DNA of 64,000 nucleotides from contig OZ336870.1 in assembly GCA_965287045.1 (NCBI GenBank), positions 41,788,001 through 41,852,000 of the forward strand. Direction: 5' to 3'. This document shows positions 3,071-42,805 of the stretch, one piece after another (position 1 is the stretch's first letter; each line of letters opens with the position of its first letter). A model generated the notes under the pieces. The model saw only the letters and a program-made list of their open reading frames with translations, did not search any database and was not told the DNA's origin. The DNA comes from Carcharhinus amblyrhynchos. Taxonomy: Eukaryota. A program made the position numbers and the translations under genes.

Positions 3071-3389
3071 CATGATGTGGAGATGCCAGCGTTGGACTGG
3101 GGTAAACACAGTAAGAAGCCTCACAACACCAGGTTAAAGTCCAACCAGTTTATTTGATAGTAATCCCACAAGCTTTCGGAAACACTGTTCCTTCATCAGG
3201 TGTGTGGAAGGTTCTGATCAGAGAAGGGTATATAAAGTCACACAAAGTCACTGCGTGGGACTTTATATGCCCTTCTCTGATCAGAACCTCCCACACACCT
3301 GACAAGGGAATAGCGTTTCTGAAAGCTTGTGGGATTACTATCAAATAAACTGGTTGGACTTTTACCTGGTGTTGTGAGGCTTCTTACTG
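3071..3389. mobile_element. Penelope-like non-autonomous hairpin element with hammerhead-like cores
   Basis: Inverted arms 3109-3243 and 3255-3389, unpaired 38-bp tail 3071-3108, and ctaacatg repeated at both ends. CTGATGA..GAAA lies on the minus strand at 3171-3200. Confidence 0.8.
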
Positions 3390-4384
3390 CAGCTAACATG
3401 CCCAGAGGAAGGGTCAAAGGTTGAACAGCTGCACAAGTTCCCCCATGCAGCAACAATGCCAGTATGAGCTGCTAGTTCTTTGAACATCCATGCTGATCTC
3501 ATATTGAATTCTTTCATCAGGAGAGGATGGAGTCACTGACAGTTTGCACATAATCAGACAATGAGGAGTCTACGACCAACAGTATTATGGCAAGGTTGCA
3601 CTGTTGAAGGTGCCATCTTTTGGATGAGATGTTAAACAAGCAGCCCTTTCCAATGAATACAAAAGATCCCATGGTGCGACTTTGAAGAACAGGGGAGTTA
3701 TTCCCAGTGTCTCGCCAATACTCATCCTGCAATAAGCATCACAAAAAGGACAGAATATCTGATCATTATCACATTGCTGCTAGTTGAAGTTTGCTGTGCG
3801 CAAATTGGCATCCGTGTTTCCAACATTACATTTCTACCGTGATTCCACCTCCACAGTACCTCATTGGCTGTGAAACACATTGGGAAGTCATTGAGGTTGT
3901 GAAAGGTACTAAAAATAAATGCAAGTCTTTCATTTTTATTTCAAAAGACTGAACAATTGAAAGCTGAAGCCTACAATGTTGTTTCAAACCTGAAGTTAAT
4001 CATTTTTATTTAATCTTAGATCACAAAAAAAAACTTTAAAAGCAGTTCAATTAACTGCAGCACTCTTGTGATTATAGTTGATTTTAGCACACTAAGGATG
4101 CTGGCAGGATGAAGAGTACACACCATTGCATATTTGTAGAATGTCCCTACTGGAAGTGGACAATGTTTTGCCAAAGAGATTATGTATATGAAGGCACAGG
4201 GAAGGCATACGGTTTAATAAATTAAATGCAATTGTAACATCCAACATGAAACATGAAGCTTTACTTTGAATGATCCAGATATCAATGCTAACATGGCTGA
4301 TTTCAGCACAATACCTTGTAAGAAGCTCATTACGGCATTTGTTCTCAAAAGCTTCTTTAATTATTTCTATTTTACCTCTAGATT

Positions 4385-4737
4385 CCCAAAGTGTAGCGGT
4401 AATGCTATGAAGCTAGTAATCCAGCAACCCTGACTGATGTTCGGGTGACATGGGGTTCAAATCCTTCCATGGCAGAATTTAAATTCAATCAATAATTCTG
4501 GAATATAAAGCTAGTAATAGTGACCATGAAAGCATTGTACAAAACTCCCACGAATGTTCCTTTAGTGAAGGAAATCTGTCATCCTTGATTAATCTGGCCT
4601 ACGTGTGACTCAGACCCACAGTAATGTGGTTGACTCGTAACTGCTCTCTGAAATGACTGAGCAAGCCATTCAAGGGCATTAAGGGTGGTAAATGCTGGGC
4701 TTGCCAGCAACACCCACATCCCATCAACAAGTGAAAG
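4385..4737 (+). mobile_element. tRNA-headed SINE, family C (head plus LINE 3' tail)
   Basis: A/B-box-like gtgtagcggt and gggttcaaatcc. It ends caagggcattaagggtggtaaatgctggg...cccacatccc, the tail shared with LINE family X. Confidence 0.8.
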
Positions 4738-5284
4738 TAAGATCAAGCTCCCCCTCAACTTTACTGGCACTCAGCTGTACTTCATCACCACTTCTCTCAA
4801 CTCCTTCACTGCTTCTTTGTTGTCAAGACTGCTAGTATGGCTTCTAGGTCTATGTGAATTGCAATTTCCTCCAATTAAATATCATGTTTTCCATTCACGC
4901 ATGGGATCTGAGCATCACTGGCAAAGCAAATATTTATCGCCCATCTCTAATTATTCTTGAGAATATGGTGAATTGCCTTCTTGAATCTGTGTTGAAGGTA
5001 CTTCCACAGTGTTCTTCAGGAGGGAGCTCAAGGCCTTTGACTCAGCAACTGTGAAGAAGTGGAATAATATTTACAAATTAGGATGCTGTGTCACTTGGAG
5101 GGAAATATACAGGTGATTGTCTTTATATATGCCTTTTGCCCTTGTTCTTCCACATGATAGGGGTCATGGAAGATGCTGTTGAATAAATCTTGATGATTAC
5201 ATTTTCAAGATGGCATACAGTGAAACAGTGCCCAGTGGTGGAGGGAGTTTGAGGCTGTGGAGAGGGTGTCAGTCAAGCGTTTAT

Positions 5285-5995
5285 TTTTTAATTCATTCAC
5301 TGGATGTGGGTGTCACTGGCTGGGCCAGCATTTATAGCCCATCTCTGAGAGCAGTTGACAGTCAACCACATTGTTGTCGGTTTGGAGTCACATGTAGGCC
5401 GGACCAGGTAAGGATGACAGATTTCCTCCTGAACAGACATTGGTGAGCCAGATGGATTTTTCAAACAATCAGCAATGGTTTTGTGGCCATCTTTTTTTCT
5501 TTTAACTCCAGATTTTTATCGAATTTAAACTTCACCGTCTGCTGTGGTGGAATTCGAAGCAATGTGCCCAGAACATTATCTTGGGTCTCTGGATTTCTAG
5601 TCCAGAGACAGTACGGGGCAGCATGTTGGAGCAGTGGTTAGCTCTGCTGCCTCACAGCGCCAAGGACCCATGTTTGATTCCCAGCTTGGGGCACTGTCTG
5701 TGTGGAGTTCGCATGTTCTCCATGTGTCTGTGTGGGTTTCCTTTGGATGCTTTGATTTCCAACCACAGTCCAAAAGATATGCTGGATAGATGGATTGGCC
5801 ATGCTAAATTGACCTTAGTGTCAAGGGGATTAGCAAGGTAAATATGTGGGGTTACAGGAATAGGGCCTGGGTGGGATTGTGGTCGGTGCAGACTTGATGG
5901 GCTGAATGGCCTCCTTCTGCACAGTAGGGATTCTACGATTCTATGATAAAAAACTTAAAAACAAATGTAAATACCACAACGCCACTGCCTCTCCA
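5285..5995 (-). mobile_element. Family C SINE interrupted by an HE1 SINE
   Basis: Tail ggatgtgggtgtcactggctgggccagcatttat at about 5300. The head resumes as aataccacaacgccactgcctctcc at 5970-5994. Confidence 0.75.
5615..5946 (+). mobile_element. HE1 V-SINE, full length
   Basis: Head, V-domain and tail aatggcctccttctgcacagtagggattctacgattctatga. Confidence 0.9.
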
Positions 5996-7051
5996 AGATT
6001 GTGTCAAGCTTCTTCAGTTTTGCATTTTCCTAAATTTCTGATTATTGACAGCAGCTCGGATGTTGGTGGTGTGGTTTAACCATGGCAATACTGCTGAGTG
6101 TCAAGAGGTGATTAAAATCTTTCTTGTTGGCAATGGCCATTGCCTTACACTTGTCTGGTGTAATCATTATTTCCCACTTACCAACCCAAGTCTGAATGTG
6201 GTCCAGGTCTTGCTGTACGCAGGCACAGACTGCTCCAGTATCTGGGGAATTGAACCCTGTGCACTCATCAATAAAAATTGACAACGCAGCTTTAGATGGT
6301 TGAGTCTAGGATTCTGCTCAGTGGAACTCCCACAGCGATTTCCTGGGGCTGAAATGCTCACCTTCCAGTAACCATAACCATTCTTCTTTGTGCTACGTGT
6401 GACTCCAGCCCATGGAGTGCTGTCTCCCTGATTCCAATTGACTTCCATTTTGCGAAGGTGGCTTGATGCCACACTCAGTCAGATGATCCCTCAATGTCAA
6501 GAACAATCACTCTCACATTGAGCTCTTTTGTCCCTGTTTGGACCACATTGAAACCTGGAGATGAGAGGCCCTGACAGAACACAATCTGAGCATCATTGAG
6601 TAGATTATTTCTGAGTAAGGGCTGATGATCGCCATGTCAACAACAGGTTCCATCACTTTGCTGATGATGGGACAGTAATTGACCTGATTGGGTTTGCCCT
6701 GTTTTTCTTTTGGATTGGACTTCCTGGACAATTTCCAATGTTGCCAGTTGTTGCAATGTCCTAACTATATTGAACAGCTCAGCTATAGGTGCGACTAATT
6801 CTAGAAAACAAGTCTTCAGCCTGGACCTGTTCAGTTTTATGTATCCAGCATTCTCAGCCATTTCCTGATGTGACCTGGAGTGAATTGAACTGGCTGAAAA
6901 ATAGTTTTTGAGAGGAAGGCGTGGGGGATGTAATTCCTCAGGAGGATGCCGAAATAGATTATCCCTTGGCTCAGTGAGCCTGCTCCACCAATTAGATTGC
7001 TGCTAATCCTCTACTAAATGCCATTTTCCTGCACTGTTTCCATGTGCCTTG

Positions 7052-7615
7052 ATAGAAACAGAGAAACTAGAAGCAGGAGGAGGCTATTCAGCCCTTCAAG
7101 CCTGCTCCACCATTCATTTTGATCATGGCTGATCATCGAATTCAATATCCTGATACCCCTTCTCTCCCCTATCCCTTGATTTCTTTAGCCCCTGGAGCTA
7201 TAAAATTTCTTCTTCAAATCAGATGTTTTGACCTCACTACTTTCTATGATAGTGAATTTCACACATGCACCACCCTTTGGCTGAAGAAATTTCTCCTCGC
7301 CTCAGTTCTAAAAGATTCATCCCTCATCCTCAAACTAAGACCCCTAGTTCTGGACTCTCCCACCATTGGTAACATTCTTTCTGAATCCACCCTGTCTAAC
7401 CCTGTTAGAGTTTTATAAGTTTCTATGAAATCCCCTCTCACTCTTCTAAAGTCCAAACAATATAATCTTAGCCAACTTAGTCTCTCCTCATATGACAAAG
7501 CTGCCATCCGAGGAATCAGCCTGGTAGACCTTTGCTGTATTCCCTCTGCAGCAAGGAAATCCTTTCTCGGATAAGGACACCAAAACTGCACACAATACTC
7601 CAGGTGTGGCCTCAC
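7052..7615 (-). mobile_element. CR1 (HER1-like) LINE 3' end
   Basis: ORF 7259-7624 reads VRPHLEYCVQFW...YEERL...RGDFIETYK...RNFFSQRVV. The 3' UTR ends in a ttcta-type repeat. Confidence 0.9.
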
Positions 7616-7638
7616 ATTAGTCACCGTAAATGCACTGA

Positions 7639-7897
7639 TTCAATATAATTATAACATTGCAACAACTGACAATATTGGAAATTGTCCAGGAAGTCCAATC
7701 CAAAAAAAGCAGGACAAACTCAATTAGGTCAATTACTGTCCCATCATCAGCAAAGTGATGGAACCTGTTGTTGACATGGTGATCATCAGCCCTTACTCAG
7801 CAATAATCTGCTCAATGATGCTCAGTTTATGTTCTGCCAGGGCCTCTCATTTCCAGGTTTCAATACAACTTTGATCTAATACAGGAACAAAAGAGCT
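7639..7897 (+). repeat. Inverted duplicate of 6521-6774 (LINE family X RT segment)
   Basis: Aligns end to end with the reverse complement of 6521-6774. Confidence 0.85.
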
Positions 7898-8110
7898 AAA
7901 TTATTGAACACGCTCAATAACTGGGCTTCCACAGCCCTGCGAGGTAAAGACTTCAACAATATAAGCAGTAGTCACTCCTCTCAATATTGTCACAAACAGG
8001 TGCATCTGTGACTGGTAGATTTATAAAGAGAGGGGTCAACTAAGGTTTTCTGTTGTGTTCGGACTCTTTCCACCTGTGGCAGGCCCCAAACCCGCAACCT
8101 AGAAGGACAA

Positions 8111-8230
8111 GGGCAGTGGCACAGTGGTTAGCACTGCTGCCTCACAGCGCCAGGGGCCTGGGTTCGATTCCCAGCTTGGGTCACTCTCAGTGTGGAGTTT
8201 GCATGTTCTCCCCATGTCTGCATGGGTTTC
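8111..8230 (+). mobile_element. V-SINE 5' half
   Basis: gtggcacagtggttagcactgctgcctcacagcgccagggg...gggttcgattcc. Confidence 0.85.
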
Positions 8231-8351
8231 GTCCGAAGTAACTGGAACAAAAAGAAAAGCACAATACGGGAACAGGCCCTTTGGCCCTGCAAGCTTACAC
8301 CCATCATATGTTCCTAACTAGACCATCCATTTTTATCCCTCTATTCCCACT

Positions 8352-8459
8352 CAGAGGAAATCCACGCAGACATGGGGAGAATGTGCAAACTCCATACAGG
8401 CTGTCTGGATTCCTGGTGCATGAGGCAGCAATGCTGACCACTGTGCTACTGTGCTGCCC
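8352..8459 (-). mobile_element. V-SINE 5' half, preceded by a minus-strand CR1 tail at about 8245-8350
   Basis: gaggaaatccacgcagacatggggagaatgtgcaaactcca...gaggcagcaatgctgaccactgtgc. Confidence 0.8.
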
Positions 8460-8469
8460 TGCGAGACGC

Positions 8470-8598
8470 GTTACAGGGCAGCACAGATAGACTTCAGCAG
8501 TTCAAAATGCAGCACACAACCATTTTCTCAAGGGCAATTAGGGATGGGGAACAAATGCTGGCTTAGGCAGTATCATATTCCTTGAAATAATAAATAAA
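8470..8598 (+). mobile_element. LINE family X 3' tail
   Basis: cagcagttcaaaatgcagc...ttctcaagggcaattagggatgggg. Confidence 0.7.
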
Positions 8599-8639
8599 CC
8601 ATTGACTACTTCAATGCTTTCACTTTGCAGTCTCCATCA

Positions 8640-8940
8640 ATTTGAACCCTGCTCTTTGAATCCTGACATGCACCAATTAATACTCACCCAGGGACCTCCT
8701 CCTTATTATTGTCCCCTAGTCCACCATCATCTCCATTTCTAATTCTCAGCCTCTGTTAAAATCCCTCTATGGCCTTACCTTTCACTATCTCTTCAAACGC
8801 CTAAAGCCCGACAGCGCTCCAAAAACTCAGCACTCCTCCAATTCTGGCCTTTTGTGCATCTGCCACCCCCCATGCATCACTATTGGCAGCTCCACCTTCA
8901 CCCATCCAGGCCCTGAAACAATCCATTGCTCTCTTTCTCT
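8640..8940 (+). mobile_element. L2 LINE 3' fragment, old
   Basis: aaatccctctatggccttacc...cactcctccaattctggcct...attggcagctccaccttca resembles the L2 C-terminal KSLHGLAP..RSS.SGLL..IGGRAF. Confidence 0.55.
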
Positions 8941-9341
8941 CTCCAACCTTTCATGCTTTTGTTGCTGTCCCAGAATAAAATGGTTAATAAACAGGAGCCG
9001 TGAAGCAGTGCTCACGCAGCATGGTTAGTTTCCATCAGGAGGGCACAGTATCCATTTTTTGACACTGAAGTGAAACCCACATCAGCAAACATGATTAATT
9101 TCCCATTTTTGAATATACAGCAATGACCCTCTTCATTGGGGAACGGTGGATGTTGATTCACAAACACCAGTCAGTAGTTTCTGAGTGTACATTCTCCATA
9201 TCGCCTGGAGCATTTCACTTGAAGAGGGTCATTGTAGTGTGACCAAAATGTTTACCCATTTTGCTTACAGGCGAAGAAAGAAAACAAGCACCTAAAGCTG
9301 GAACAAAAGGTGTCCCACTGCTAAATCAGTGTGATACAGCC

Positions 9342-9537
9342 CCGGTTCCTGGCCTTTTGGCTAAGATGAAGCATTAGATCAAGCCCGGGAGGGGGTGCAA
9401 TGCCTCATCCTGTCAGCTTGGATCTTGTTTGATCAAGCCCAAGATGAGATGCAATGTCTTATCTTGTCAGCTTGGATCTTGTTTGTCCCTCATGGGGAGG
9501 ACTGTGATTGGACCTAAGTTGAATTGGCTTTTTTGAT
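9342..9537 (+). pseudogene. U2 snRNA-derived element or pseudogene with an internal 54-bp tandem duplication
   Basis: ggccttttggctaagat at 9351-9367 is identical to U2 stem-loop I. gtccctcatggggaggac resembles stem IIb and aattggcttttttga resembles the Sm site. The repeat units are 9377-9430 and 9431-9484. Confidence 0.7.
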
Positions 9538-11329: not shown

Positions 11330-11493
11330 AGTTCTCTGCCTAAAGGCAGGGTCAATTCATAGTTCCATGACTTGCATCACGGGTGAGGCAAGGAGGCAGG
11401 TCCAGAATCAACCCCAACCACAACAGAGATCGCATCCCATGCTGTTGGCACCAATCTGATGCCAGCCATCCAGCCAACTGAGCCAACCAGCCC
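11330..11493 (-). mobile_element. Old tRNA-derived SINE head
   Basis: Minus strand gggctggttggctcagttggctgg...gccaacagcatgggatgcgatc has an A box and a degenerate B box. Confidence 0.5.
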
Positions 11494-11670
11494 TCCAAGA
11501 AGTCAGAGTTGCTGTGGCAACATATACTTTACATGTGGGCTGCAGTCTGGAGCTATGGATAGTGATGTAGAAGCTTCAATTTTTCTCCATCACATGGCTG
11601 AGCAGGAATCACACCCATCCTGCCATTGGAAGGATTTACAAGTTGACTTTCAATTTATTTGGCTGCATTA

Positions 11671-11969: not shown

Positions 11970-12189
11970 GTTTAGATATTTGGATCTGCTGATTTATTAT
12001 TGTCTATTTGTGTTTCTAATTTACAGGTCTGTCTAGGGTCATATGTTCAGTAATTAATATTAATTTGAATGAAAGATTTCAGTTATGTGGAGAAACTCTC
12101 TCCCTCTTTCTCTCTCATCAGTTACTATGCCCTAAGATAATCATCTATCGCAATGTTAATTAAGGGTTAAATATTGGGCAGGGTATCAC

Positions 12190-16075: not shown

Positions 16076-18300
16076 TAATAATAAGTTTATTAATTTCTAT
16101 GATTTTTTCTAATTACTGTCTTGTATTTCCTACTTTAACCTTAAACTTAATGCAAACAAATACCTAAGCTTCTTAAATTGGAGGTATCAAGGAAATCATA
16201 ACACTGGAAACTTGGAATGCAAAAAAAAGTTGAAAATTTGGAATCTGTTAAGAGAAATTAAATCCTGTTTGTGAAAATCCATTTGTGAATTTGAACTCTT
16301 GATATCCACCTGTCCTCCCCCCTTGCACTCTGTTTTCTTGGCTAAATTAGCCAGTCTTACGTAAAGGGGGCTTCTGTAATCTGACTATGCTGAAGATCCC
16401 AATGTGAAATAAAAGTAGAAAATACTATTTTTATCTCAGATATTAGGAAAATCCACAGAAGTTTTTTTGCTTTTGTGCCCATCTGAAATGTTAACTTGAG
16501 TGTTAATAGAAATGTTAACAGATGATCGATCAATGCACAAGGGCAATTTTCATTAGAGCAAAGCAATGTGATAGAATTGTTTAAGGTAGATAGAAGCAGA
16601 CTGGCTCTTGCACTAAGGACTATAGCTATGAGATTAATGTGAAAGATTTAGAATAGAAAGTAAGAGGTATTTCTGTATACTTCAGTGATCAAGGATCTAT
16701 GCCAACATTCAACATTTGATTGCATAAGTGAACGAAGGAAAAGGGGATAAGGAATGGGAATAAAGGGATATATGCATTGGATGGATAAATGTGATTGGGA
16801 AGGTAAATGCTGACATGGACTGATAGGAATGAATGGCCTTTTACCACATTCTAGGATTGACCCGTTCCTACGTATTTCCAGCACTTTATTTTAACTCGAA
16901 GTCCAATTAAGGTTATGCAGTAATTTGGGAGCTTATTACACGTTCACATACATTTTATGATAACTGATTTCCTATTTAGAAGTTCAGACTGATGTTTGAA
17001 TGCCCACTGTTGCCTAGTTACCCACCATTCAGAGAGGAGGCAGTTTCCCATTAATCCTAGGGTTAAACCTTTTCCACTGCAATGCGTCCACGCAGTCAAG
17101 GTAGTTGAAGATCTAATACTGTGAATTATGATTAAGCTTGTTATCTCCATGAAAAAATATCAAACTGAGAAGTGGCAGATATTTTAAATATCTCTACTAA
17201 ATGAACTACAGAACATAATGATTTTGGCAATGCCATTCTCTCTCCCCCCACCACCCTCACCCCAATGCGTGTGGAATGCCATCGGTCACAACATCCGCTT
17301 TTTATCTTCGTCCTGCTGGCTGTCATTAAGTGACTCACTGCCTGAGTCTGGCACACCTCAAGAAGACATTGGGCTTTGCGTAAAGGTGAGGCTGTCATTC
17401 CAGTAAATCTGCCGACTGCCTCCAAATGTCACCCGGAAAATGTCACATATGATTTGCATGCATTAGGCAGGTAACGGATGACAAGAATGCAAAACCTCCT
17501 AAATGATTAATGATTTTAGGGTCATTCTTTTAAATTGTTTCAATGGTCTATAGTAATTCTAGCGACACTAAGCCAGATATCTGTATCTGTTATGACAAGG
17601 CAATGAAAATGCCAGACTCTGTCATCTGAATAATAAATGAATCTCGGATTTGTCAATCACCCGTGTCCTGTATAAGCTCTCCCCACCAAAATCGTTCATA
17701 TATACTTTGAAAATCTTAATAGTAACAATTTTACACATGTATATGGTGACTAAGGATATATTTTCAAAATGAATATATTCAAACTAAAATATTGCAGTTA
17801 CATAGAGATGAACATAATGGTAATTTTCTTCAATGGTACACGTGGGGAGTCATTTTGTGAGGTTCTCTTCCCCTACAGACAGACTCACTAGATAGGAGCG
17901 TAAGTCCTATAACTGCTATTTCAGTGTTAAAGTCATAACATCACTCAAGGTGCCACGCAGATATTTGTCACATTGGGAGTGGAGCTGAGCAAAAATACTT
18001 CAGTCATCCGGAATATTCTGGAAAATACAGTCTTCAGTGTGTAAGTTAAGCCTCTCTAACCAATATAAATTTTAAAAATATTAACCAGTCAAAAAGAAGA
18101 ATCGGCCTTTAATTTTTTTTGTTACTCCCAAATTAATTTCTTTGACCTTTGTCTTCAATTTTCCTTTTGCAACATTGCTGGTTTTCTATTTTCATGTTTG
18201 CAGAATGCTTACTGTCTCGCAGCCTGTAGTGAGAAGACGACTCACAATACATGGGTTTGAAAGTTTATGAAGCGCAGGGGGCAGTGGTATTAAACACAGT

Positions 18301-18512
18301 TTGTTCCAGACACTCACACCGTCTGTGTGAAAAAATTAACACTCAGGATTCTTTTGTATCTCTCCCCTCTCATCTTAAATCTAAGCCCTCTAGTTTTAGA
18401 CTCCCCTACCTTTGGGAAAAGGTATTGACTTTAGTGTTAGTGTTTAATGTTTGACTTTAGGAGAGGAACCTGATGTAAGGAGTCTCTGTTGCTTCTCTGT
18501 GCCTGGGAAATG
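18301..18512 (+). repeat. Direct duplicate of 19542-19753 (CR1 piece plus unique flank)
   Basis: Collinear, high-identity match including ggagaggaacctgatgtaaggagtctctgttgct. Confidence 0.9.
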
Positions 18513-19361: not shown

Positions 19362-19670
19362 TAGGAGTCATAGAGGTTACAGCATGGAAACAGGCCCTTC
19401 AGCCCAACTTGTCCATGCCACCCATTTTTTTAACTCCTAAGCTAGGTCCAACTGCCCATGTTGGCCCATATCCCTCTATACACATTGTAATGCTTTTTAA
19501 AAGATAAAATTGTACCCGCCTCTACTACTACCTCTGGCAGCTTGTTCCAGACACTCACTACCCTCTGTGTGGGAAAATTGCCCCTCTGGATCCTTTTGTA
19601 TCTCTCCCCTCTCACCTTAAATCTAAGCCCTCCAGTTTTAGATTGTCCTACCTTTGGGAAAAGATATTGA
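19362..19670 (-). mobile_element. CR1 LINE 3' end
   Basis: catagaggttacagcatggaaacaggcccttcagccc...ccctctgtgtgggaaaa. Confidence 0.8.
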
Positions 19671-20677
19671 CTTTAGTGTTAATGTTTAATGTTTGACTTC
19701 AGGAGAGGAACCTGATGTAAGGAGTCTCTGTTGCTTTCTGTGCCTGGGAAATGCTGCTATCTCATGCAAAATGAAAAGAAAAATCCAGCATCATATCTGA
19801 GCAAGAACAGAATGCCAGGTGATAACAGGAAATGAGTACAAATGTTAATAGTCCATATAAAAGTCCCAGTAATGCCCTCCTCTCAAAAGACAAGCGAAGA
19901 GAGTCGCTAAATTGTAAAGAATCAAGAAGACTGAGACATAATCCTACAGTCCTGATTAACTTTTTCTACTGGCCTCGTCCAACAATACTTCAATGTGATA
20001 AGGTCCGACAAAGTCTGCACCAGTTTGTAATAGTTCAGCCACAGCAATACACAATGGAATCCTCTTAACAGGAACTTGCTCTTAATCAAATTTGCTGTTA
20101 TGAGGAATTCACCTTTCCACTGTTATTGATCCAGAATCCGGTGCTCACAGTTGGGATAAATTGCTCTTCAGCCACATGCCTTTAATACATCGTTTGGTAT
20201 TAAATCAGGTGTCAAATTTGATTTTGAATCCAATGCCCTTGGGCCTGCCAGCTTCAAAGACAGCCCGTTTACACGCAGATGGTTTCCAAAGCTGGCATAC
20301 ACCAAAAACAAAGCTGCCATTTATTGTTCATTAGTTCATTCCATGGCTTGTTCATACACCGATGTCCTGCAACTTATTTTGCCTGACTGCATCCCCCCCC
20401 ACCCCCGCCACCCCAGGGATGAAGAGGATTTTAAGTTTAGTTCCTGCAGTTCTTTGAGCTTTTACAATTCAGATCCAATCAATGAAAATAATGCTTATAC
20501 ACTGATGTCTTAGAGATGTACACTGAGTTGTTCAGGGTGGATGTGCATGGGCAACATTGGACAACAATGGTAGTTGAGGAGGTTAAACTCATATGTTCAG
20601 ATCCCCCCACTGCCTTGCTCTATAAATCCCTCTAGTACTCTGTCCCTCCAAAAACTGCATTCCTTCTTTGAGCTATA

Positions 20678-27969: not shown

Positions 27970-28550
27970 GACTGTGCGGGAGGCAACGGGGGTCAAGAAA
28001 AATCAAATCAAAATGACAAAATTAAAATAAAGGGAGAAAAATCAAAGCATAAAGATTCCACAGAATCAGAGATGGGAGCCAGTGACTGCTGATGGACCAG
28101 GTTCATTGGAACATAACTTGCAGACAGTTTAGCCAGACAGAATTCCATTGTTAGTAGCGCGGCCATTTTATTCCATCATTATTGTTTGTAGAATGATCTT
28201 AAACCGTCAGCACTGCAGAATACAAACCCTCCCCTGTCTATAATGATGTTGGAGGTCCTTATCAGAACTGAGAAATGATGGCATCTCTTTGGTATTAATG
28301 AGGGATACATGCTGCCAACTCGTCACTGTGTTATTCCATAAGATTGTTTGATATCTTTTTGATTTCCTTTTGGAATATTTCATTTTTGCTCATGCTAGTT
28401 GTGATGATGTCTCAATTTTAAAAGATAGCCATTGTCATTAGTATTTATTAGATTTGAGCAGATCTCTTTTGGCATTACTCTGGTAGTTGGTACACAGAAT
28501 ATTACAGCAGATGTAGCGGCCGCGATTTCACGGCTGCATTGCACATTGCA

Positions 28551-28727
28551 CAGTAAAAAGTCTGACAACACCAGGTTTTAGTCCAACCGATTTATTTGGT
28601 AATACTCACAAGCTTTCGAGGGGACTGCCTCTTCAAATAAATCGGTTGGACTAAAACCTGGTGTTGTCAGACTTTTTACTGTATTTACGCCAGTCCAACG
28701 CCGGCATTCCCACATCATGACTACTAT
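28551..28727. mobile_element. Penelope-like hairpin element inside a MITE-like repeat (about 28516-29040)
   Basis: Perfect 48-bp arms at 28551-28598 and 28634-28681, tail on the right, TSD ttgcacat(t/c)gcac. Confidence 0.85.
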
Positions 28728-29222
28728 TTGCACATCGCACCCAGTGCAGAGTGGGTTAGAGTGGAGTGTGGCGGGATGTAACGTCATGTTGGCAAGAGGG
28801 GCATTCTGTACTTGGGAGATCATTTGGCAGAGAAGCCCTTTGGATACATTTAAATGTATTTACACGCATTTAAATGAGGTCCCTGCCTTTTTGGGCGGGA
28901 ATTTTGTTGCAGCAACAGGGAAGGGCAGGGATAATCTTTGAATGAGATCTTGCTTCGAGATTCTTGTTCCCACAGTGTCACAGGATTTTCTGGTATCATC
29001 ACCATTTTCATCTGCGGTGAACGCCGGAGGAAAATCCCCCTCCCTCCATATTTTTTCCTGCCCCAAAGATGTTTCCCTTGGGTTTTTTACAGCAGTGTCC
29101 GGAGATTATCTTCTATTTCTGCAGAGTTCAATGTCCTCCAGGAGCTGGGTTGGCTACTCTACAGATTTTTGGCAGGAACCATGGCCACCCCATTCATATT
29201 TCAGTTGATTTGGGTGCAAGCC

Positions 29223-32812: not shown

Positions 32813-33811
32813 TGTAAATTTGCATCTTTACAAGTTCCATGTGCTAAATCATATGTGCTGCTATGGTCCCTGTGCCCCCCTGGCTCCCCACATGGGGAGC
32901 CCATCCATGTCAGAATGGCCATTCAGGTAGTTTTTGCATGATCAATTAGCCATTAGTAGAATGGAGGCAGAATTCCTACCCTGCATAGGCAGAAAGTCTT
33001 GCCTCAAAGAACGATTGGCCAATTGAGGCTGATAGTTCTTGATGTACTGGTATTGGCAGCAGGGGCGGTGGCCACTGTCTGTACTGGACTTGGGCAGTGT
33101 TGAGATGAGCTACGATGGATTGGAACCAAATGTTTGGAAGTTGGTCAAAGGGGTGGAGACGATATTTGAGAGGTCATGTGGGGAAAGACAAATTCGGAGA
33201 GGGCCAGTCAAAGCAAACTCGGACAGGGCCCAATACCAGCCCTGAAGGAAACCTGCCAGGCCTACTACTTTGCATGGGCCTCATCCACAGCCAGTGGACA
33301 TTAACTGAAGGCCTTAATTGGCCCAGATGTATAATTGCAGTGGAGACAGGGGCAAGCAGGTATGCAGTGGGCAGGCCTAGTTTTAGTTGGATTTAACTTG
33401 GTACCCGCCTTCAAGCCCACTGGAGGAGGAGTGTTAAATTCAAGCCCATATTTCTGTAGCAGAATTTCAAACACCAAATGCAATCCAACAGTGAAAGAAG
33501 CTGACACTGTTTGATATAATGACTACCACTATAAGTGGACAGGGTATCAGAGCTGATAGGGCCATTGAGTGAGGGAAGAGTTCAGGTTGGGAAACCCTAA
33601 TGATACACTTGTTTGCATGGTGTAGAGCATTTTGATACAAATGGATTCCATATCTAGAAGCCAGCCTGATTAAAAGGCTTGGCTGCTTGCCAGCTGAGTA
33701 ATGCTCCATAATATACCCTTTTGTGGGGGTTGGGATTAGATATTGCTGGGTCATAGTTGAGTGCATAGAGTGTAGCTAGATGGCAGGGGATAGGGCTGGT
33801 CAGTGGGCAGG

Positions 33812-33943
33812 ATGATGTGGGTATGCCGGCGTTGGACTGGCGTAAACACAGTAAAAAGTCTGACAACACCAGGTTTTAGTCCAACCTATTTGTTATCAAA
33901 TAAATAGGTTGGACTAAAACCTGGTGTTGTCAGACTTTTTACT
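33812..33943. mobile_element. Minimal Penelope-like hairpin element
   Basis: Perfect 42-bp arms at 33850-33891 and 33902-33943, a 38-bp tail, and a perfect 13-bp duplication agtgggcaggatg at 33802 and 33944. Confidence 0.85.
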
Positions 33944-34260
33944 AGTGGGCAGGATGTCAGAAAAGATTGTTGAATGTTTGTTGGGGGCAGAAACTGTATG
34001 GGGAGAGGCAGAGATTATGTGGGAGTGCTGGAGATTCAGAAAGAAAGTTGGAGGTCATGGGAAGATTGACAATGAAGAGGTTGGAATATAAGAGGAGGGA
34101 GCAGAGAGATTATAGTGGGAGTGAGGGAATGGTGGTTATATATTAGCTAATTGACCTTGGGAAACACTCCCCTTATTCTTGAGCCACAAGAGATGCGGTA
34201 GCAATCTTATGGATCCAGTCCTTCTCACCAGCCTTAACTGGTGAAATTCTTAGCCCATAT

Positions 34261-34557
34261 TCATAGAAGCATAGAATCCCTACAGTGCAGAAAGAGACCA
34301 TTTAGCCCGTCTGCTGCACTGACAGCAATCCCTATTCCTCACAACTCCAATATTTACCCTGCTAGTATTTACCCAACACTAAGGGGCGATTTAGCATGGC
34401 CAATCAACCTAACTGGCTCATCTTTGGACTGTGGGAGGAAACCGGAGCACCCAGAGGAAACATGTGCATACTCCAAACAGACAGTCAGCCAAGGCTGGAT
34501 TTGAATCCAGGTCAACCATGGTGGCACATTGCTGAACCATCATGCCACCATGCCGCC
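34261..34557 (-). mobile_element. HE1 V-SINE
   Basis: atagaatccctacagtgcagaa...ggactgtgggaggaaaccggagcacccagaggaaac. Confidence 0.85.
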
Positions 34558-35898
34558 ACACTGGGGAAAAGACAGAAATCGTACTAAAGTGAAGGTACAC
34601 AGCCTCCTTCAGACCAAATGACTAGTTCACCTCCTGATAGAGTATTAGTTGCCTGTCACTCAATCAACCATTGTTACACATGGGTGGATTTAAGGTGAGT
34701 TGTGTCCCTGCTTTAGATTTTTAACCATTTACCCACCAGTTTAAAGGCGGTTAAACGCAACCCTAATATTAAATCTTTTATGATCAATTCAATCTATAAA
34801 AGACTGACATGAATATTCACAGTCAGAGATGTTTTTAAAATGGGGTCAAATATCTTCATTTTCAAACGTTAAAAGGAAAGGAGCAAGAAGAGATTTTTAT
34901 TTTAGTTTTCCATTCACTTTAAATTCCTTTGGTTTCCTTTCTCCTTACTCTTTTTTTCAGTTTTCAAATTTTAGGTAAGGATTTTTTTTCTTCATTTATG
35001 GGCTTTCTTCTGTGGTTATATAACACATCAGCAGGATAAACTCTCCTGAATGTTTAATGGGATGTCTTTTTAGCATTTAGCCACAGGTACTTATCTACAA
35101 CCCTTGACTGATTGCAAGATTCTATCAATTGGACTGGAATCCTTTTTATAGTGAAATCATTTACCACAACAGAACTTCCTTATATTAGTCACTGGCTGAC
35201 TGAGTGTCACTGATCAAAATGGATTATGCAGCAAATTTGGCAGCTAGCAAGCAGTGAGACCTACTTTAATGTTATTTCAAAGTAAAAATGACAAAATTTC
35301 TGACGATTTCTTCTTCGTCAGAGTTTGGGTCATATCAGAGAAATTGCCATCCTGATCATTTCTGTTACTGAGCTGGAACCAATCCTTTTGCAACATGGTT
35401 GCATTCATCGGGAATCTATATCTGATTGGATCCATGTGCACCCAGTAGACCCCAGTTAGACTGCCAGTTTCAATATGTGTGTGCCATGCTCTGCCCACAT
35501 GCTGGATACATTTTTAATTGGTCAGTGGAGAATCAATGGTGCTGCTAACCATGAAGAAAGCTGCCCACAGAGGTTGAACAACTTACGATTTAAGCTTACA
35601 TCTTAGATGCTCCAATCATTTATTTCACTATATCTAAATATTTACAATTAAAAATGAAAGGAGTCACTGTATTTCCTTCATAGGTTGCTAACTGTAAGAG
35701 TTATTTCATTGTGATTGGCTGCTTACCCTGTTTGATGGAAGTCTGGAGATCACCTTGACTTGGTGACAAAAGCAAACTGATGTTGGGAAAGGGGGAAATC
35801 AGAGACACCTGGAAACATGGCAGCCAGGTCCACTTAATCATAGAAGAAACACTGTGTCAGTTTCTCAATGGCAGTAAAGCCTCCCATGATTAAATCCG

Positions 35899-36095
35899 GA
35901 TATGGAGATGCCAGCATTGGACTGGGCTGAGCACAGTAAGAAGTCTCATAACACCAGGTTAAAGTCCAAAAGGTTTACTTGGTTTCACAAACTTTCAGAG
36001 TGCTGCTCCTTCATCAGGTGAGTGGAGTCACCTGATGCAGGAACAGTGCTCTGAAAGCTTATTGGACTTTAACCTGGTGCTGTGAGACTTCATAT
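35899..36095. mobile_element. Penelope-like hairpin element
   Basis: Tail plus inverted arms, hammerhead-like cores at 35991-36018 (-) and 36031-36060 (+), and TSD catgattaaatc at 35885 and 36096. Confidence 0.85.
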
Positions 36096-36780
36096 CATGA
36101 TTAAATCAGAGGGTGAAAGGGGCTGGCACAAGATTCTTGACTGTTGACTTATTAATGAGCGAATTGACACTCATTATCTTTGAGCTTATTGCAATTTAGT
36201 GTTGGCTCAGGGACTGAATGCCTCCCTATTCCTCATGAAGACTGTCCAAAAATGCCTATGCCTGAACAAGAGTCCTGACCTTCGGAGGGCAGGGGTGTGG
36301 GGGGGTGGGGGGATTGGGGAGTTGGGAGTTCTCACTGAATTTCAACCCTCTGTCCCAGCCTACTCTCCCCTCTGCAGACTGTGCCTCACAATCCAATCTC
36401 ATGATCCCCATCCCACTCTCACTCACCTTTAGTTGGGGGCTTCACAATGACCCTCGGCCTCTGGTGGGTGCATTGCCTCCAGCTGCCACTGCTCTTGCTG
36501 GCACTGGCAGCATGAGGCGCTGCAGGCCTCTGATTGACAGTTTCCAGCGATGAGATCTCTACCACTGAGGAATTCAGTCACAGGGGAGACCCAATGCTGG
36601 TCATGTAGGTGCCTGAAGGGTTCTTGACTCCACAAGGCCCACTCCATGGAGCTGATGGGGACTCCCCTCCAATTCTCCAACTGGTAGTTGAGCTCCCCCC
36701 TTGACCTAACAGAATGTGGGTCATAGTTATAGCTCATTCACCAAGGTGTAACTTCATCAAGGGTTCTTACAATTAGAGTC

Positions 36781-36946
36781 CTAGAATCATAGAATCCATA
36801 CAGTGCAGAAGGAGTCCATTCAGCCCAACGAGTCCACATCCCTCCTAGGCCCTATTCACGTAACCCACACATTTATCCTACTAATGCCCCTGACACTAGG
36901 ATCAATTTAGCATGCTCAATCAACCGAACCTACACACCTTTGGACT
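36781..36946 (-). mobile_element. HE1 V-SINE 3' part
   Basis: tagaatcatagaatccatacagtgcagaagg...caatttagcatg. Confidence 0.85.
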
Positions 36947-37357
36947 AATTAGACTAAGAGCATAAGAGTGAAAGTCCTCGCCAGCTCAATGTTTTGATTG
37001 CAACCTGAAGAGACCACAACAGGGCACCCTCTGTAAATGCACAGTATCACTGATAGAAACTACGCATGTTCAGAAGTTGTTGTCAGTGTCAGGAGAGTGG
37101 TGATGATGAAACTTGACCTTTCTGCCATTACCTGTGTCGAATCCGACACAGTTTTAGCCAAAGTTTCAGCAAAGTTTTGACAAGATAACTGAAGTTTATA
37201 AATCCTAAGCCTTTAAATGGACAAGCTGTTTGCTTCACACGGTTTCCATCTTTATCACCACTTTGAGATGATTGGAATGGTCTCAATCCACCTGTCTACC
37301 CTTGAGTTTACTAACAGGAGTCTGGAAAATGTACAGTGTATACCAAAAAGGAACCAT

Positions 37358-37467
37358 GGGTGGGATTTTCTGGCCCTGACAGCAGTGGGCATCATCACAG
37401 GTGGGACAGATAGATTTGGCAAGCATGCAGCAATGCCCGCTGATGTCAGGACCAGAAAATCCCGCTC
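37358..37467. mobile_element. Short MITE
   Basis: TIRs gggtgggattttctgg and ccagaaaatcccgctc, flanked by cat and tat. Confidence 0.6.
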
Positions 37468-37608
37468 TATAGCAATTCATCTCATCCAGTGGATTATTTT
37501 TGGAATGAAAATACCATCCTTATTTAGACAAAGTCAGCACCCAGTTTGGTTACAACAAAGTCCCCCACGTAAAGTAGTAACGTAAAAGTAAAGTAACATT
37601 AAAGAGAG

Positions 37609-37783
37609 GTTTATTTATTCATCACAAGTAAGGCTTACATTAACACTGCAATGAAGTTACTATGAAATTCCCCTAGTCGCCACACTCAGGCACCTATTCG
37701 GGTCAATGAATCTAGCCAGCACATCTTTCAGAACGTGGGAGGAAACTCAGGCAGACACAGGGAGAATGTGCAAACTCTACACA
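37609..37783 (-). mobile_element. V-SINE tail type B
   Basis: cacaagtaaggcttacattaacactgcaatgaagttac...ggagaatgtgcaaactc. Confidence 0.85.
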
Positions 37784-37874
37784 AAATGCTGGTGTTAGGT
37801 GGAAGGAGAACTGTTGACCAGAACACTCTGAAGCTCCCCTGGGGTTAGATCTGTCAGCTTGATAGGACTTTGGT

Positions 37875-38001
37875 TAGCATCTCATCCACAAAACACTTCT
37901 AACAATCCCTTCCCACTTTGCTAAAGTGTCAGTCTGAATTATACATTGAAGCCTGTGGTAAGGCTTGAACCTCTAACTTACTCCCAGCTGAGCCAAGCTG
38001 T
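37875..38001 (-). mobile_element. DeuSINE head fragment, old
   Basis: catctcatcc...gtgtcagtctg...ggcttgaacc...ctgagccaagctg. Confidence 0.5.
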
Positions 38002-38230
38002 CCTGGTTACTGATGACAAAGTAATCACATCTCAGTGCTCCTTATGGTTTTTTTTGCTATGTCACTAATAATTTCTGATTTTCATATGGAATATGTATTA
38101 AAATAGCTAAAGGACACTGATCATGATGACTGAAGATGTATGGGGTTAGAAAATCACACCAGGAGCTAACTTGTTTACAAAAGTAAACAATTGATAGAAT
38201 GGTTTTACTGTCAATGCGGCATATTGTGGG

Positions 38231-38395
38231 ACAAAGAACAAGGAAAAGTACAACACAGGAACAGGCCCTTTAGCCCTCCAAGTCTGTGCCGATCATGATG
38301 CCCTAACAAAACGAAAAAAGGCCTCTGCCCTTACTCAGACCGTATTCCTCTATCCCTTCCCTATTCATGCACCCATCCAGATACCTCTTAAATGT
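38231..38395 (-). mobile_element. CR1 3' UTR fragment
   Basis: acaacacaggaacaggccctttagccctccaagtctgtgccgatc. Confidence 0.75.
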
Positions 38396-41300
38396 AATGG
38401 TTTCAACTTGTGTTCCATTGCAATGTTCCTTATTTGTGCACACAATTCCTATGAACCAAGTCATGCATGAACCAACTTAAAGCCGCGTGCCTTAGCAATG
38501 TGTCACCTGAGCCAAACCTGGAAATTGCATGGGCTGCCTACCTGCTCTCTCCAAAAGCCAGGAAAGAAATCACACTAATGGACCATATTGTTCTGATTAA
38601 ACCTACTAACCAGTTTTATCATGTGAAAGTAAGTAAGTTAAACGAGTGGCAAAAAAAATTGTAACACATCAGTGCATTTTCTTGAATATTTGAAACCATG
38701 AGTGATACCACAGTATTTAAAATTCTCAAGAGACTGTATGACCGTCTCTGTTGATTTTTTTTAAAAACATATACGAATTCACAGTTTTAACTCTCAGAAT
38801 TCTGGAGCTCTGCAATTAAAAGGAAATAAGTGAATTTAACACACGAAACAAAGCTGTGGCAATTAGGCCAGGGGTTCATGTAGTCTCACAGATTAAAAGA
38901 TTATTTTCTTCACTCAGCGATTTTTTTTTTAAAGAAGTCCCAAATCCTTTCCAAACAGGCACATAAACAAGTTTTCAATTAATTATTTATTCAAGGCAAA
39001 TAGATCATGAATTGCCAGTTTTTGACGCCTAGATGTTTTTTTACATTTTCTAGCACTAGGTAGGCATTCCAATTAGTTTGAGCCTGAGCAATCATTATGC
39101 ATCTCCACTCATAGTGACAATCTAGCATATATTAAAATGCATCTGAAGCCCTGATGGTGGAACTATTTATAGAGAAAGACATAAACAAAGGTGGATCAAT
39201 CTTCTTTGCCTTTCAGTGTTAAACTTAAAGAGCATCCATACATTCTCTCAAAACTCCCAGGTCCCCAAGTGAGGACAAAGGACAGAGTAAATCATATGAA
39301 AAACAGCAGCTATAGATTCCATTTTAAATATCCTAGTGCCTAGGATTGGCTACTATTTAAACTCAGACGTAAAAATATGCTATAATTTGAAAAGGACTGA
39401 TTTAGTGAAGGGTTCCATAAAAAAAAAGTTAATCTATTTTTCAAATGCTGCTTTGACCTGCTGGTTGTGAATTTTCAACACTTTTCATTATTATGTCATC
39501 ACGGTATAATTACTTTACGCAAAATCTCATCAGCATTCATCACAAGGGCACAGTACTCATTTAACCATTAGATTATGACTGCTGCCCTTGTTTAAAATAC
39601 ATAATAGTTGAAACATCAGATAAGGCACAGTGTTCTAAAGGCACCTGGCGAGAAATGCAAGGAAAGAAATCCTAGCCTGAACAATCCCATTTTATCCCCT
39701 CTCCTAGTTCTGTTCCTCTAAAATGATCTCAACGGCATATTGACCTGAACAATAGAATGAAGTATATGGGCTGGCTGGGCTGTTTCAGTCTTTACTTTCC
39801 TATGGGTCTCTGCTGCATTCATTGTAATCTAATTGAAAATAATAACATTCAGTATACGATCAGCATGACAGTAAGCAAGACGTCGAATCAAAATAGTCAG
39901 TAATTCTTACATCCTGTACTCCAAACTATTTCAAGTGAATGTATTCAGGAAAATCTTTGGTCTGAAATCAGCTCTTTACAAAACACATTCTTTGAGGTAA
40001 CACCGCAAAACCAGCAGAACGATCTGAGCACATTTCTTATAATTAGATTTTGGCTTTGTGTGCCAATCACAGATTTATCAACCATTCAGATAAACTGCAT
40101 CCTTCCTGACAAGATTATTGAAGCAATATCTTTGTATGTACATATGCTGACATTTACAAGGCATCCTCATGCTTAATCCTAGCTCACACTCCTGTACCCT
40201 ATCACAGCAAAGGGGGATGTCAATCAAGCTGGAAGGATATAGCCAGCACATCTGGTTAATCACTGCACTCACATTTGTGCCTTGATATTTATTTCCAGCC
40301 AGAGATCTCTGGTCTATTCTCCCTGTCATTCGAGAGCAATGTGTATAATTTATTAAGTAGCTAAACTGCATTATGAATAAGGGATGAGGCCAGCCATGGG
40401 ATTGAGAGAATGTAGATACAAACTCACGACTGTGAACTGACTTAGGTGAGCTTTGCGCTCCAAAAGATGACGACATCTGTTTCAAGAAGTTGAAGTGTGG
40501 AGGAATTTTGATGTCCGCTGCTGGGGCTCTGGTCAAAAAAAAACCTTTAAAAGAAAGTTCATGGAAAGACAATCTGCTAATGGGTTTTTGCAGGCTGTCT
40601 CAGCATATGGGAGGAAATGTCTCAAATTTTCTAGATGCCCCAAGCCTTCTCTACAATCTTAAAAATAACACATATGTTGAATAAATTGAGACGAATGGCA
40701 AATGAATTAAAATGCGTTTTGTGAAATAAGGAAAAGGACAATCTTAAATTAATCCTCCTTTCTGAATAACATTTTCCTTTTACTTGAATCAAGTATTATG
40801 TTTGGTGCACTTGATTCACACATACAAATAATCATTAATCGTAATGCGGATACATGTCCATGTGTAGCAATTCTGGTATCTCCTCCAAGTGGCCAACCCT
40901 TATGTATGAATCTAGATAGTGAGCAAAAATGTAGACTGATCAACCATAAACCTGATTTCAACCCATGTTCATTCATTTTCTTACTCAATATTCATACAGG
41001 CTCCCTTTCCAAATGGATGACATTCAGGATCAGTTGCTCTTCCCAGACGACAAACTTGATGCAGATAGAGATTCCCAAATGTGATGATCGGCAAACAAAG
41101 CACAGGTAAGACATAAAGCATCAAAGTTGTGACTTTCTGGTCTTTATGCTTCAATATCCATGATAGGTTGTTTCTATTAACTCATCAGTGAGTTCCTTCC
41201 ATATAATTGAGCTAAATGACAATAACACAATCTTCTATTGTATGCAACATATGTTTAATGATAATCACTCCTATTGCATGGACAGAATTAACAACACAAT

Positions 41301-41590
41301 TTTAGTTCTTTCAGAAAGCAGCAATCATTTTGTTTAGCTTAGAGCTTAGGAATATGCAGGATAAGGGTCAGCACATTTAACTCTGAACTCAAGTTCAAAG
41401 TGCAGACTGCCAGGATATTAGTCCATGTTTTCCAGTAGAGGCGATAAGAGCTCAACATTAAGTAATAAATTGGGTAGCAGCTTTTGGATTTGGCAAATGG
41501 ACAATCAAACATGGAAAATAGGAAAGTACTGTTCAGGATGGTCAGCTAGTTCAGACATTACACCTTAACAATATCTCACTAAGAGACTTA

Positions 41591-42805
41591 GGGAGCGATC
41601 TTACCCAAACAATTCTAAGCGCCAAATTGGGAGAGAATCGCATACATTTTTGGATGCGTTCTCAAACACAATCTTATGCCACTTAGTGCAAAAAAGGAGG
41701 CAAAGTATGATTCACACCAATAAGTGGAGTGGACAGAGTTTATTTCAGCTGGAAATCCAGCTGCTGACAGCTAGAGGTCTCCATTGTGCATGTGCCTTGA
41801 TCTCTCAGTGTTCTATGTACAAGTGTACATACTATACTGAGAGATCTATCACTCCCCCTGGGATATTGCCCCCTCCCCCCCCAATCCTGCCAACCACCAC
41901 CTCCCACTCTGGGCATCATTTCCCCCCCCACCCCCTCCCGAATTCTGACCTCCCCAGCTAATCACTGGCCTCCCTGGTTGACATGATGTGGAGATGCCGG
42001 CGTTGAACTGTGGTAAACACAGTAAGAAGTCTCACAACACCAGGTTAAAGTCCAACGGGTTTATTTGGTAGCAAAAGCCACTAGCTTTCGGGTCTCTGAC
42101 CGTTCATCAGATGAGTGGAGCGTTCTGAGTCATCCCCTGTTTGCGATCAGAACTCTCCAGTCACCTGACGAAGGGTCAGATGCCTGAAAGTGAGTGGCTT
42201 TTTCTACCAAATAAACCTGTTGGACTTTAACATGGTGTTGTGCGACTTCTTATTCCCTTGATGATCCATGGCCTGATCCCCTCCCCCTGCCAATCACTGT
42301 CCTGATAGCCCCCCTGGATGATGGTTGCCCTAGCCGATCCCTGATTGTCCCACCCCACTTAGGGCCCATCTCTTGGCACTGCCCAGTGCCAGGATGTCCA
42401 ATGGACCATGTCAGGGTACTTAGTGGGCTGTGCCAGACAGGTAGTGCCAGGCTGGCAGTGCCCAAGGGATACTGCCCCCCTGTCCCCGAACACTTGGGGG
42501 CATTAGCAAGGCTATTACATCTGGTCCCCATAGTTTGGGGACCATAGGTGATCCTCGCCAGTGAGGATCTCCATTGGAGAGGCCAGTTAGGCAAGTGAGC
42601 CCGGACGATCCTGTCTTGGCCTCACTAATAATATGTAAATTCACACTGAATATTAGAATTAGCCTTGCACCCTTCCCCAGCGTGAGGCTGATTACACCAG
42701 CTTCACAATGCCAGTAGTGCTGCGAGAGACAAGAAATCAGGCACGAATGTCATGCTGGCTCACCGCACTGGTTGACCGGAGGCACAAGCTGGTAAGATTG
42801 CCCCC
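41591..42805. mobile_element. PIF/Harbinger-like MITE, about 1.2 kb, with a nested Penelope-type hairpin
   Basis: TIRs gggagcgatcttacc and ggtaagattgccccc, flanked by tta and tca. The left part is homologous to 47338-47600. Confidence 0.7.
41982..42253. mobile_element. Penelope-like hairpin element
   Basis: Tail catgatgtggagatgccggcgttg..., inverted arms, cores at 42083-42110 (-) and 42164-42190 (+), imperfect TSD tccctggttga/tcccttgatga. Confidence 0.85.

Follow-up and report, generated by a model that had tools for sequence, protein, structure and literature searches.

Penelope-like hammerhead motifs in a shark genome and the truncated, head-to-head terminal repeat insertions that carry them

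Do hairpin-forming repeats with hammerhead-ribozyme-like cores encode functional ribozyme RNAs, or are they remnants of a mobile element? The question is raised by a 64,000-nucleotide stretch of Carcharhinus amblyrhynchos DNA (assembly GCA_965287045.1, contig OZ336870.1, positions 41,788,001 to 41,852,000; the whole stretch is called the window here, and positions are counted from its first letter), for which an initial annotation had proposed RNAs that bear ribozymes, with one core per strand. We consider it very probable that the motif is a hammerhead belonging to a Penelope-like element (PLE), in whose terminal repeat (pLTR) it resides, and that the hairpins are truncated, head-to-head insertions of this repeat, with a core that folding predictions suggest is locked and inactive. 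The ribozyme finding itself is ordinary, and adds a shark family to a class that was described in 2014. Its value lies in the scale: a single family provides no fewer than 36,626 cores, in which stem II covaries naturally, together with source elements whose open reading frames (ORFs) are intact. The insertions strictly follow one pattern, in which the arms are head-to-head, one end is long and the other short, and a 10-14 bp duplication is present; this pattern bears on how PLEs integrate and on what the PLE hammerhead is for.

Inspection of the window confirmed the four annotated minus-strand cores, and also the degenerate mirror copies on the plus strand (at 3299, 36032 and 42165). On the minus strand, CTGATGA is found at 3199, 36017 and 42110, and GAAAGCT at 3177-3171 and 42089-42083, with GAAAGTT instead at 35996-35990; the fourth motif is 5'-truncated, with GAAAGCT at 28617-28611. 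The motifs are more frequent than expected by chance. According to 200 first-order Markov resamples, 0.145 cores with a stem II of at least 3 bp and 0.005 cores with GAAAGYT-H are expected, whereas the window contains three and two, respectively. All cores fall in five related inverted repeats (E1-E5, see the table). The claim that four different stems keep their pairing around a conserved core is correct in so far as stem II covaries across the family, and the core at 3199 is canonical, the sole such motif in the window. It does not extend to the core at 42110, where a C-C mismatch, hidden by a register slip in the annotation, takes the place of the G10.1-C11.1 closing pair of the family. At 36017, AGUU replaces AGCU and the closing pair is G-U, and the truncated core at 28635 lacks C3-N7. 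The three plus-strand mirrors are all broken in the core, by G8>A, by A9>C together with loss of the stem I 3' strand, and by loss of the C of GCU, respectively. None of the five window insertions has two intact cores.

As the annotation had supposed, the motifs are, by their sequence, real minimal type-I hammerhead ribozyme motifs of a PLE: they fit the published consensus, and occur in full-length copies of the element. Genome-wide, there are 36,626 exact cores that end in A, C or U, versus 388 that end in G; the reversed controls gave 1 and 0. Among 254 parsed of 259 matches, H17 is T in 153, A in 74, C in 24 and G in only 3 cases. These counts place the predicted cut after GAAAGCU-H, one base later than annotated (just 3' of GAAAGCU) and in agreement with the published NU-H consensus; in E1, the cut is thus predicted between 3170 and 3169. 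GAAAGCT is present in 179 of the 254 parsed matches, and most of the others are explained by G12>A decay. In an unselected sample, 1.0 Mb drawn from contigs C1-C15 at fixed positions and including 100 kb beside the window, the CUGANGA and GAAA boxes are intact in 19 of 38 parsed copies (42 covered the region). The motif is without stem III in cis, and has a palindrome at 15.1-16.1; the annotated role of AGCU as a stem III that forms in trans fits the description of the PLE minimal hammerhead in PMC4209133.

For the analysis of covariation, rows of odd length, or with two or more core mismatches in a box, were dropped, which left 229 of the 254. In these, the extra base between A9 and stem II is A in 225, and the 10.1-11.1 closing pair is G-C in 178 and G-T in 37 (CpG decay). 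Pairs 2-4 of stem II alternate among G-C, A-U and U-A, whereas pair 10.1-11.1 stays G-C. In 25 recurrent stem II variants, 70 of 75 cells are Watson-Crick, in comparison with a mean of 44 and a maximum of 61 in 20,000 shuffles. As the shuffles ignore relatedness, a tree check and an arm-to-arm check were added. In a rough tree of 145 copies, built on about 95 nt outside the stem, 12 of the 29 stem II changes on internal branches are compensatory. Between the arms of single insertions, compensation accounts for 2 of 35 differences, and 12 break a pair. A 26-row alignment, in which three of the four stem II pairs change on both sides, has 91.6% of stem II cells paired, versus 20-54% in slid controls. 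The anticipated covariation across subfamilies is borne out by these counts: stem II is under selection in the source elements, and the copies then decay neutrally. Stem I (CAC/GUG) is paired in 221, 215 and 221 of the 229 rows at its first three positions. The retention of the catalytic positions, of G10.1-C11.1 and of a base other than G at H17 is the sequence pattern that would be expected of selection on cleavage chemistry.

Relatives of the window arms extend upstream into a frame with similarity to endonuclease (EN) and reverse transcriptase (RT) domains. A genome search with this RT yielded 13,669 candidates, many of them with long open frames, and twelve loci were retrieved to establish the structure of the source element; full-length copies include L083, L085, L087 and L088. 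The full-length unit consists of a pLTR, an 893-amino acid ORF with RT and GIY-YIG domains, and another pLTR, with a sense-strand core in each pLTR, 218 nt past the stop codon and about 125 nt ahead of the next ATG. In L085, L087 and L088, two same-strand cores are 3,026 nt apart. In Pfam, the ORF matches RVT_1 (E 1.5e-9) and GIY-YIG (E 5e-5). Short EN fragments of decayed copies had given no Pfam match, and the match came with a young copy; a solved-structure search with the 893-amino acid ORF gave no match. By the criteria set out in PMC8557442, applied by eye, the ORF has the DKG motif, a CX4CXXC linker just before the EN domain, and the CCHH residues. In that account, a CX2-5CxxC linker between RT and EN is shared by Neptune and Nematis and is absent from Penelope/Poseidon, so that the linker excludes the latter and indicates Neptune or Nematis. 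Judging by these motifs, the family is likely an endonuclease-bearing PLE of the Neptune clade. The closest named proteins are from sharks (83-91% identical), and no named Neptune or Nematis protein was found among the protein matches of the ORF. The single ORF, the tandem and inverted pLTRs, the one-sided tail and the target duplication are all traits of endonuclease-bearing PLEs. A profile search detected 67 pLTR ends in the unselected 1.0 Mb, which scales to roughly 200,000 ends in the 2.92 Gb genome. The pLTR is also present in the four contig sets that were compared with it, which show its presence, not RNA ends.

Some copies of the element are of interest in their own right. In L083 (G000 C13:53303801-53313800), L084 (C4:94988401-94998400) and L094 (C8:36534301-36544300), the paired arms are head-to-head and each has an open frame in the range of 700-980 codons; such full-length inverted insertions are a sign of a very young subfamily. 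In the young subfamily represented by the cores of L085, L086 and L093, GCG replaces GUG as the 3' strand of stem I, which results in an A-C mismatch two bases from the cut.

How did the hairpins arise? Among 30 neighbouring matches in the unselected 1.0 Mb, 24 are head-to-head, 3 are tail-to-tail, and 3 are on the same strand. In 19 of these 24 head-to-head pairs, and in all five window insertions, one end lies at the ATG and the other about 35 nt short of it (long/short ends). Loci that were selected by pattern are similar, with 23 of 27 head-to-head and 19 long/short. A flanking direct repeat of at least 10 nt is present in 62 of 89 long/short pairs versus 1 of 440 shuffled ones, and an 11-13 bp target match in four of the five window insertions. 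The layout and the target duplications together imply that each hairpin is a single insertion of a 5'-truncated, head-to-head pLTR with a target duplication and a one-sided tail. Core sequence is found on both arms in 4 of the 24 unselected inverted insertions, and on neither arm in 12. Hairpin length forms a continuum, up to whole ORFs.

The junctions between the arms were resolved in 41 of 65 cases. In 22 of these it is the short-ended (tail-less) arm that extends beyond the other, in 6 it is the tailed arm, and in 13 the two are equal, i.e. within 5 nt (22 versus 6, sign test p=0.004; one pair of rows is a segmental duplicate). The tail-less arm is ahead by at least 30 nt in nine junctions, and 26 of the 41 have a 1-5 nt overlap. 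One identical junction is present at 17 loci, in at least three sequence variants, with both arms always of the same variant and with the tail on either side (9:7). This junction has been re-made at microhomology from one template, and has not been copied as a unit. Other identical junctions also recur, yet there is otherwise great diversity among junctions. An origin of the two arms from different templates was flagged in 4 of 100 cases and rejected, as one of these is two separate elements and three are junction artefacts. Among the loci, L285/L302 and L187/L188 are segmental duplicates. In one region (G000 C1:5337804-5527889), core pairs recur about every 50-76 kb, which suggests a large segmental tandem array.

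The junction data appear to favour two cDNAs that are primed from both nicked strands on one RNA. The endonuclease would likely nick the two target strands about 10-14 bp apart, and each nicked 3' end would prime a cDNA on a shared RNA template, beginning either beside the ATG or about 35 nt upstream of that site. The two truncated cDNAs would then be joined at a few bases of microhomology, and the copies would decay neutrally once inserted. The PLE protein of Anolis is described to nick and extend both strands, and to initiate reverse transcription at a pair of sites that correspond to the ends of the tail (PMC11167929). We regard it as an even bet that the stubs record PLE integration of this kind: a single uncleaved RNA would be copied once from each nicked target strand, the two fixed starts being separated by about 35 nt and the copy begun upstream tending to extend further, before the cDNAs are joined head to head. 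If true, a single mechanism would account for the 10-14 bp duplication, for the tail on one side and for the inversion of the pLTR, and the hammerhead, though selected for cleavage, would not set the template end. Since the family has intact ORFs and young copies in the tens of thousands, it lends itself to a direct test of this question.

In the source element, the motif would likely cut after GAAAGCU-H, weakly, and only when two same-sense cores pair through AGCU, as could happen between the two pLTRs, which are about 3.0 kb apart on a tandem transcript; in view of what is reported in PMC4209133 and PMC11167929, protein help for cleavage is probable. Young cores in isolation are predicted to adopt the hammerhead fold (P 0.82-1.0), and the trans AGCU helix is worth -3.9 to -4.5 kcal/mol in the model. 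Modelling of the three hairpins with a full core gave P(stem II)=0, with the core fully paired to the antisense arm. A transcript of either strand of a hairpin holds just one sense core, and because the arms are inverted, the same-sense partner that the dimer requires is lacking. The core in the window hairpins is predicted from these models to be locked and inactive.

Several results weigh against this picture, or against parts of it. A match to the Rfam hammerhead models, which had been proposed as a check, was found neither for the window (E<=5) nor for the pLTR of a young copy (E<=10), and the scans returned only below-threshold matches, mostly of microRNA (miRNA) models on hairpins; the miss is plausible for motifs without stem III in cis. 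Stem I, of which 3-4 bp are conserved and up to 6 bp are present in young copies, shows no compensatory change. While it can be formed in most of the 229 rows, its predicted probability in the native pLTR of three young copies is at most 0.05. Isolated window cores also fold poorly, with P(stem II) of 0.11 (3199) and 0.02 (42110), and the lowest-energy homodimers in the models differ from the catalytic dimer. Such weak predicted folding agrees with the low, dimer-dependent or protein-assisted cleavage in published work. The 5' ends of the arms show no accumulation at the cut: of 169, 4 lie within 2 nt of it and none exactly there, with positions beyond about -150 limited by extraction. An initial count of 91 junctions had shown no asymmetry, with the long-ended arm ahead in 35, the short-ended arm in 36, neither in 17, and 3 unresolved; it used a single reference and query-biased loci, and was replaced by the corrected count given above. 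In the latter, 24 of the 65 junctions did not resolve, and for offsets over 15 nt the asymmetry is weaker (12 versus 4, p=0.08). Finally, the Neptune placement is based on the linker motif rather than a tree.

The 5' ends of 13 of 169 arms form a mild cluster where stem I begins, 31-40 nt 5' of the predicted cut, and many junctions likewise fall just 5' of the core. The cluster could be due to a transcript start, an RT pause or microhomology.

With the same element and equally inert copies, the inversion might have another origin, namely self-priming (fold-back), which in the account of Adineta PLEs (PMC3846280) is proposed to take place on an antisense template. Fold-back would fit the near coincidence of many arm ends (13 of 41 within 5 nt) and the 1-5 nt overlaps. 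For a sense-templated cDNA, however, tail and loop would have to share one arm, yet it is the tail-less arm that reaches further in 22 of 41 junctions, and the nicking and extension of both strands by the Anolis protein, from two starts that match the tail ends, also speaks for priming on both strands. We therefore consider fold-back unlikely, if still the most serious competitor; its antisense-templated form retains some probability. Somewhat less probable again is the idea that the motif has lost cleavage and is now a conserved structure or a site for protein binding. It would account for the weak predicted folding in context, for the absence of ends at the cut site, for the in vitro insertion of Anolis PLE core mutants (as described in PMC11167929), and for the finding that eight of nine Xenopus dimers were without cleavage. 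It would not account for the retention of the catalytic positions, of G10.1-C11.1 and of the not-G rule while H17 shifts among U, A and C.

The remaining alternatives concern the hairpins as such. That they are a non-autonomous mobile unit, similar to retrozymes or to miniature inverted-repeat transposable elements (MITEs) and copied as such, might be concluded from the recurrence of identical junctions at unlinked loci, 17 in one case, and from the target duplication that each insertion has of its own. For the 17-locus junction, which was tested, copying as a unit was rejected, since the variants and the side of the tail differ, and the shared junction is a short microhomology. The diversity of the other junctions, the explanation of two apparent twins as segmental duplicates, the absence of tandem core arrays from the window, and the small share of same-strand neighbours (3 of 30) make this alternative very improbable. 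The annotated reading, in which the hairpins function as ribozyme RNAs and both strands carry an active core, has, if anything, even less in its favour. Mirror cores do exist, and some unselected inverted insertions (4 of 24) keep core sequence on both arms. However, the mirror is simply the second arm of the insertion, two intact cores are not found in any window insertion, half of the unselected ones have no core at all, and the transcript of each strand has one sense core that is predicted to be paired to its antisense. Moreover, 33 of the 35 arm-to-arm differences break pairs or give G-U, like neutral decay, and hairpin length varies continuously up to whole ORFs. The hammerhead of a PLE terminal repeat, present in the window in truncated and probably inert insertions, thus remains our preferred explanation.

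Table. Insertions of the pLTR family in the window, with their cores and target-site duplications
Feature	Position	Strand	Description
Insertion E1	3073..3389	both	Head-to-head 5'-truncated pLTR arms: minus 3248-3073 tailed, plus 3250-3389 tail-less; arms of 140 nt, 91% complementary
E1 canonical hammerhead	3167..3202	-	Stem I CAC 3202-3200 / GUG 3169-3167; CUGAUGA 3199-3193, inserted A, stem II GGAA/UUCC, then GAAA-GC-U-U
E1 mirror core	3299..3328	+	Decayed: G8>A, G-U closing pair
E1 left target-site duplication	3063..3074	+	Right copy 3389-3400; 11/12 alike
Insertion E2, young subfamily	28549..28727	both	Minus arm 28635-28549 is the short end; plus arm 28634-28727 tailed, with tail, ATG at 28717 and 8 further ORF bases; arms of 49 nt, 100% complementary
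E2 truncated core	28607..28635	-	Lacks C3-N7 and stem I 5' strand; stem II GAGG/CCUC
E2 left target-site duplication	28539..28551	+	Right copy 28728-28740; 12/13 alike
Insertion E3, same family	33813..33943	both	Each arm truncated 3' of the hammerhead; coreless
E3 target duplication	33802-33814 / 33944-33956		Exact, 13 bp
Insertion E4	35899..36094	both	Minus arm tailed; plus arm short, with internal deletion
E4 target duplication	35885-35896 / 36096-36107		Exact, 12 bp
E4 core	35986..36020	-	CUGAUGA at 36017, G-U closing pair, AGUU
E4 mirror core	36032..36060	+	Decayed: A9>C, stem I 3' strand deleted
Insertion E5	41984..42254	both	Minus arm tailed, plus arm short; target duplication decayed, no scripted call
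E5 core	42079..42113	-	CUGAUGA at 42110, GAAAGCU-A, C-C at stem II closing pair
E5 mirror core	42165..42193	+	Decayed: C of GCU lost

In addition to these insertions, of which E3 is a coreless fifth member of the family, the window contains other repeats. A 265-bp inverted repeat (6517-6774 and 7639-7901, 89%) outside the pLTR family flanks an inserted repeat fragment (7062-7615). The dispersed repeat that is abundant in the window, likely a tRNA-derived short interspersed nuclear element (SINE), forms inverted pairs at 863-1204 and 8114-8451. Short MITE-like hairpins at 46773-46870 and 37362-37463 are unrelated to the pLTR, and have below-threshold miRNA model matches alone. There is also a 217-bp direct repeat (18297-18512 and 19538-19753, 91% alike, 1.2 kb apart), and a 35-bp minisatellite in 7 copies (1297-1539). 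Related 3' fragments similar to long interspersed nuclear elements (LINEs), with open frames of 135-252 codons, are found at 51310-51980, 53094-53795 and 63147-63998, and are presumably of CR1 type.

Among known systems, the minimal hammerhead ribozyme (min-HHR) of metazoan PLE pLTRs, with the consensus NNN CUGANGAH G..C GAAAN NU H NNN (Cervera and De la Pena 2014, PMC4209133), is the closest match for the motif. The shark motif fits this consensus, and shares the inserted base after A9, G10.1-C11.1 and the palindromic 15.2-16.2; its G-C-U form is found in the turtle, schistosome and rotifer rows of the published alignment. Thousands of diverse copies per genome, and opposite-strand pairs 100-700 bp apart, are also noted there. 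No shark row is present in the alignment or Table S1 of that study. Stem II has 3-5 bp in the shark family, in contrast to 7-8 bp in the schistosome motifs, and at least 36,626 exact cores compare with the reported figures of about 4,000 in coelacanth and about 9,000 in Xenopus, which were obtained with different descriptors. Non-LTR retrozymes, as presented in bioRxiv 10.64898/2026.07.22.740005, are similar in being pLTR-derived and ORF-less with a type-I hammerhead, and are reported there from one chondrichthyan genome. Retrozymes are described as head-to-tail tandem units, whereas the window elements are single head-to-head insertions: two or more head-to-tail units with a hammerhead in each are found in none of the five, and same-strand neighbours are again rare (3 of 30) in the unselected sample. 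Neither an earlier shark report nor a two-strand-priming model was found in the literature searched, although Repbase, Dfam and subscription papers, which were outside the search, may hold the family.

The insertions most resemble those of Adineta Pen2a/Pen2 (PMC3846280; scheme in PMC8557442), which are described as head-to-head and 5'-truncated, with a 30-40 nt tail on one arm and a target duplication. The duplication is given as 8-10 bp in Adineta, and is mostly 10-14 bp in the shark family. Beyond the Adineta account, the layout has been counted here over about a hundred insertions, down to ORF-less stubs of 130-320 bp, and the asymmetry of the arms speaks against simple fold-back. The Poseidon element PAc of Anolis, as characterized in PMC11167929, also has an RT and GIY-YIG ORF, a pLTR hammerhead and two tail-defining 3' ends, and its natural ends likewise do not reflect the cut site. 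PAc differs in that its hammerhead and start codon overlap, with reverse transcription initiated at ORF positions +111 to +118. In the shark family, about 97 nt separate the predicted cut from the ATG that follows it, one of the two ends is close to the ATG and the other about 35 nt upstream, and the ORF has the CX4CXXC linker that sets it apart from Penelope/Poseidon.

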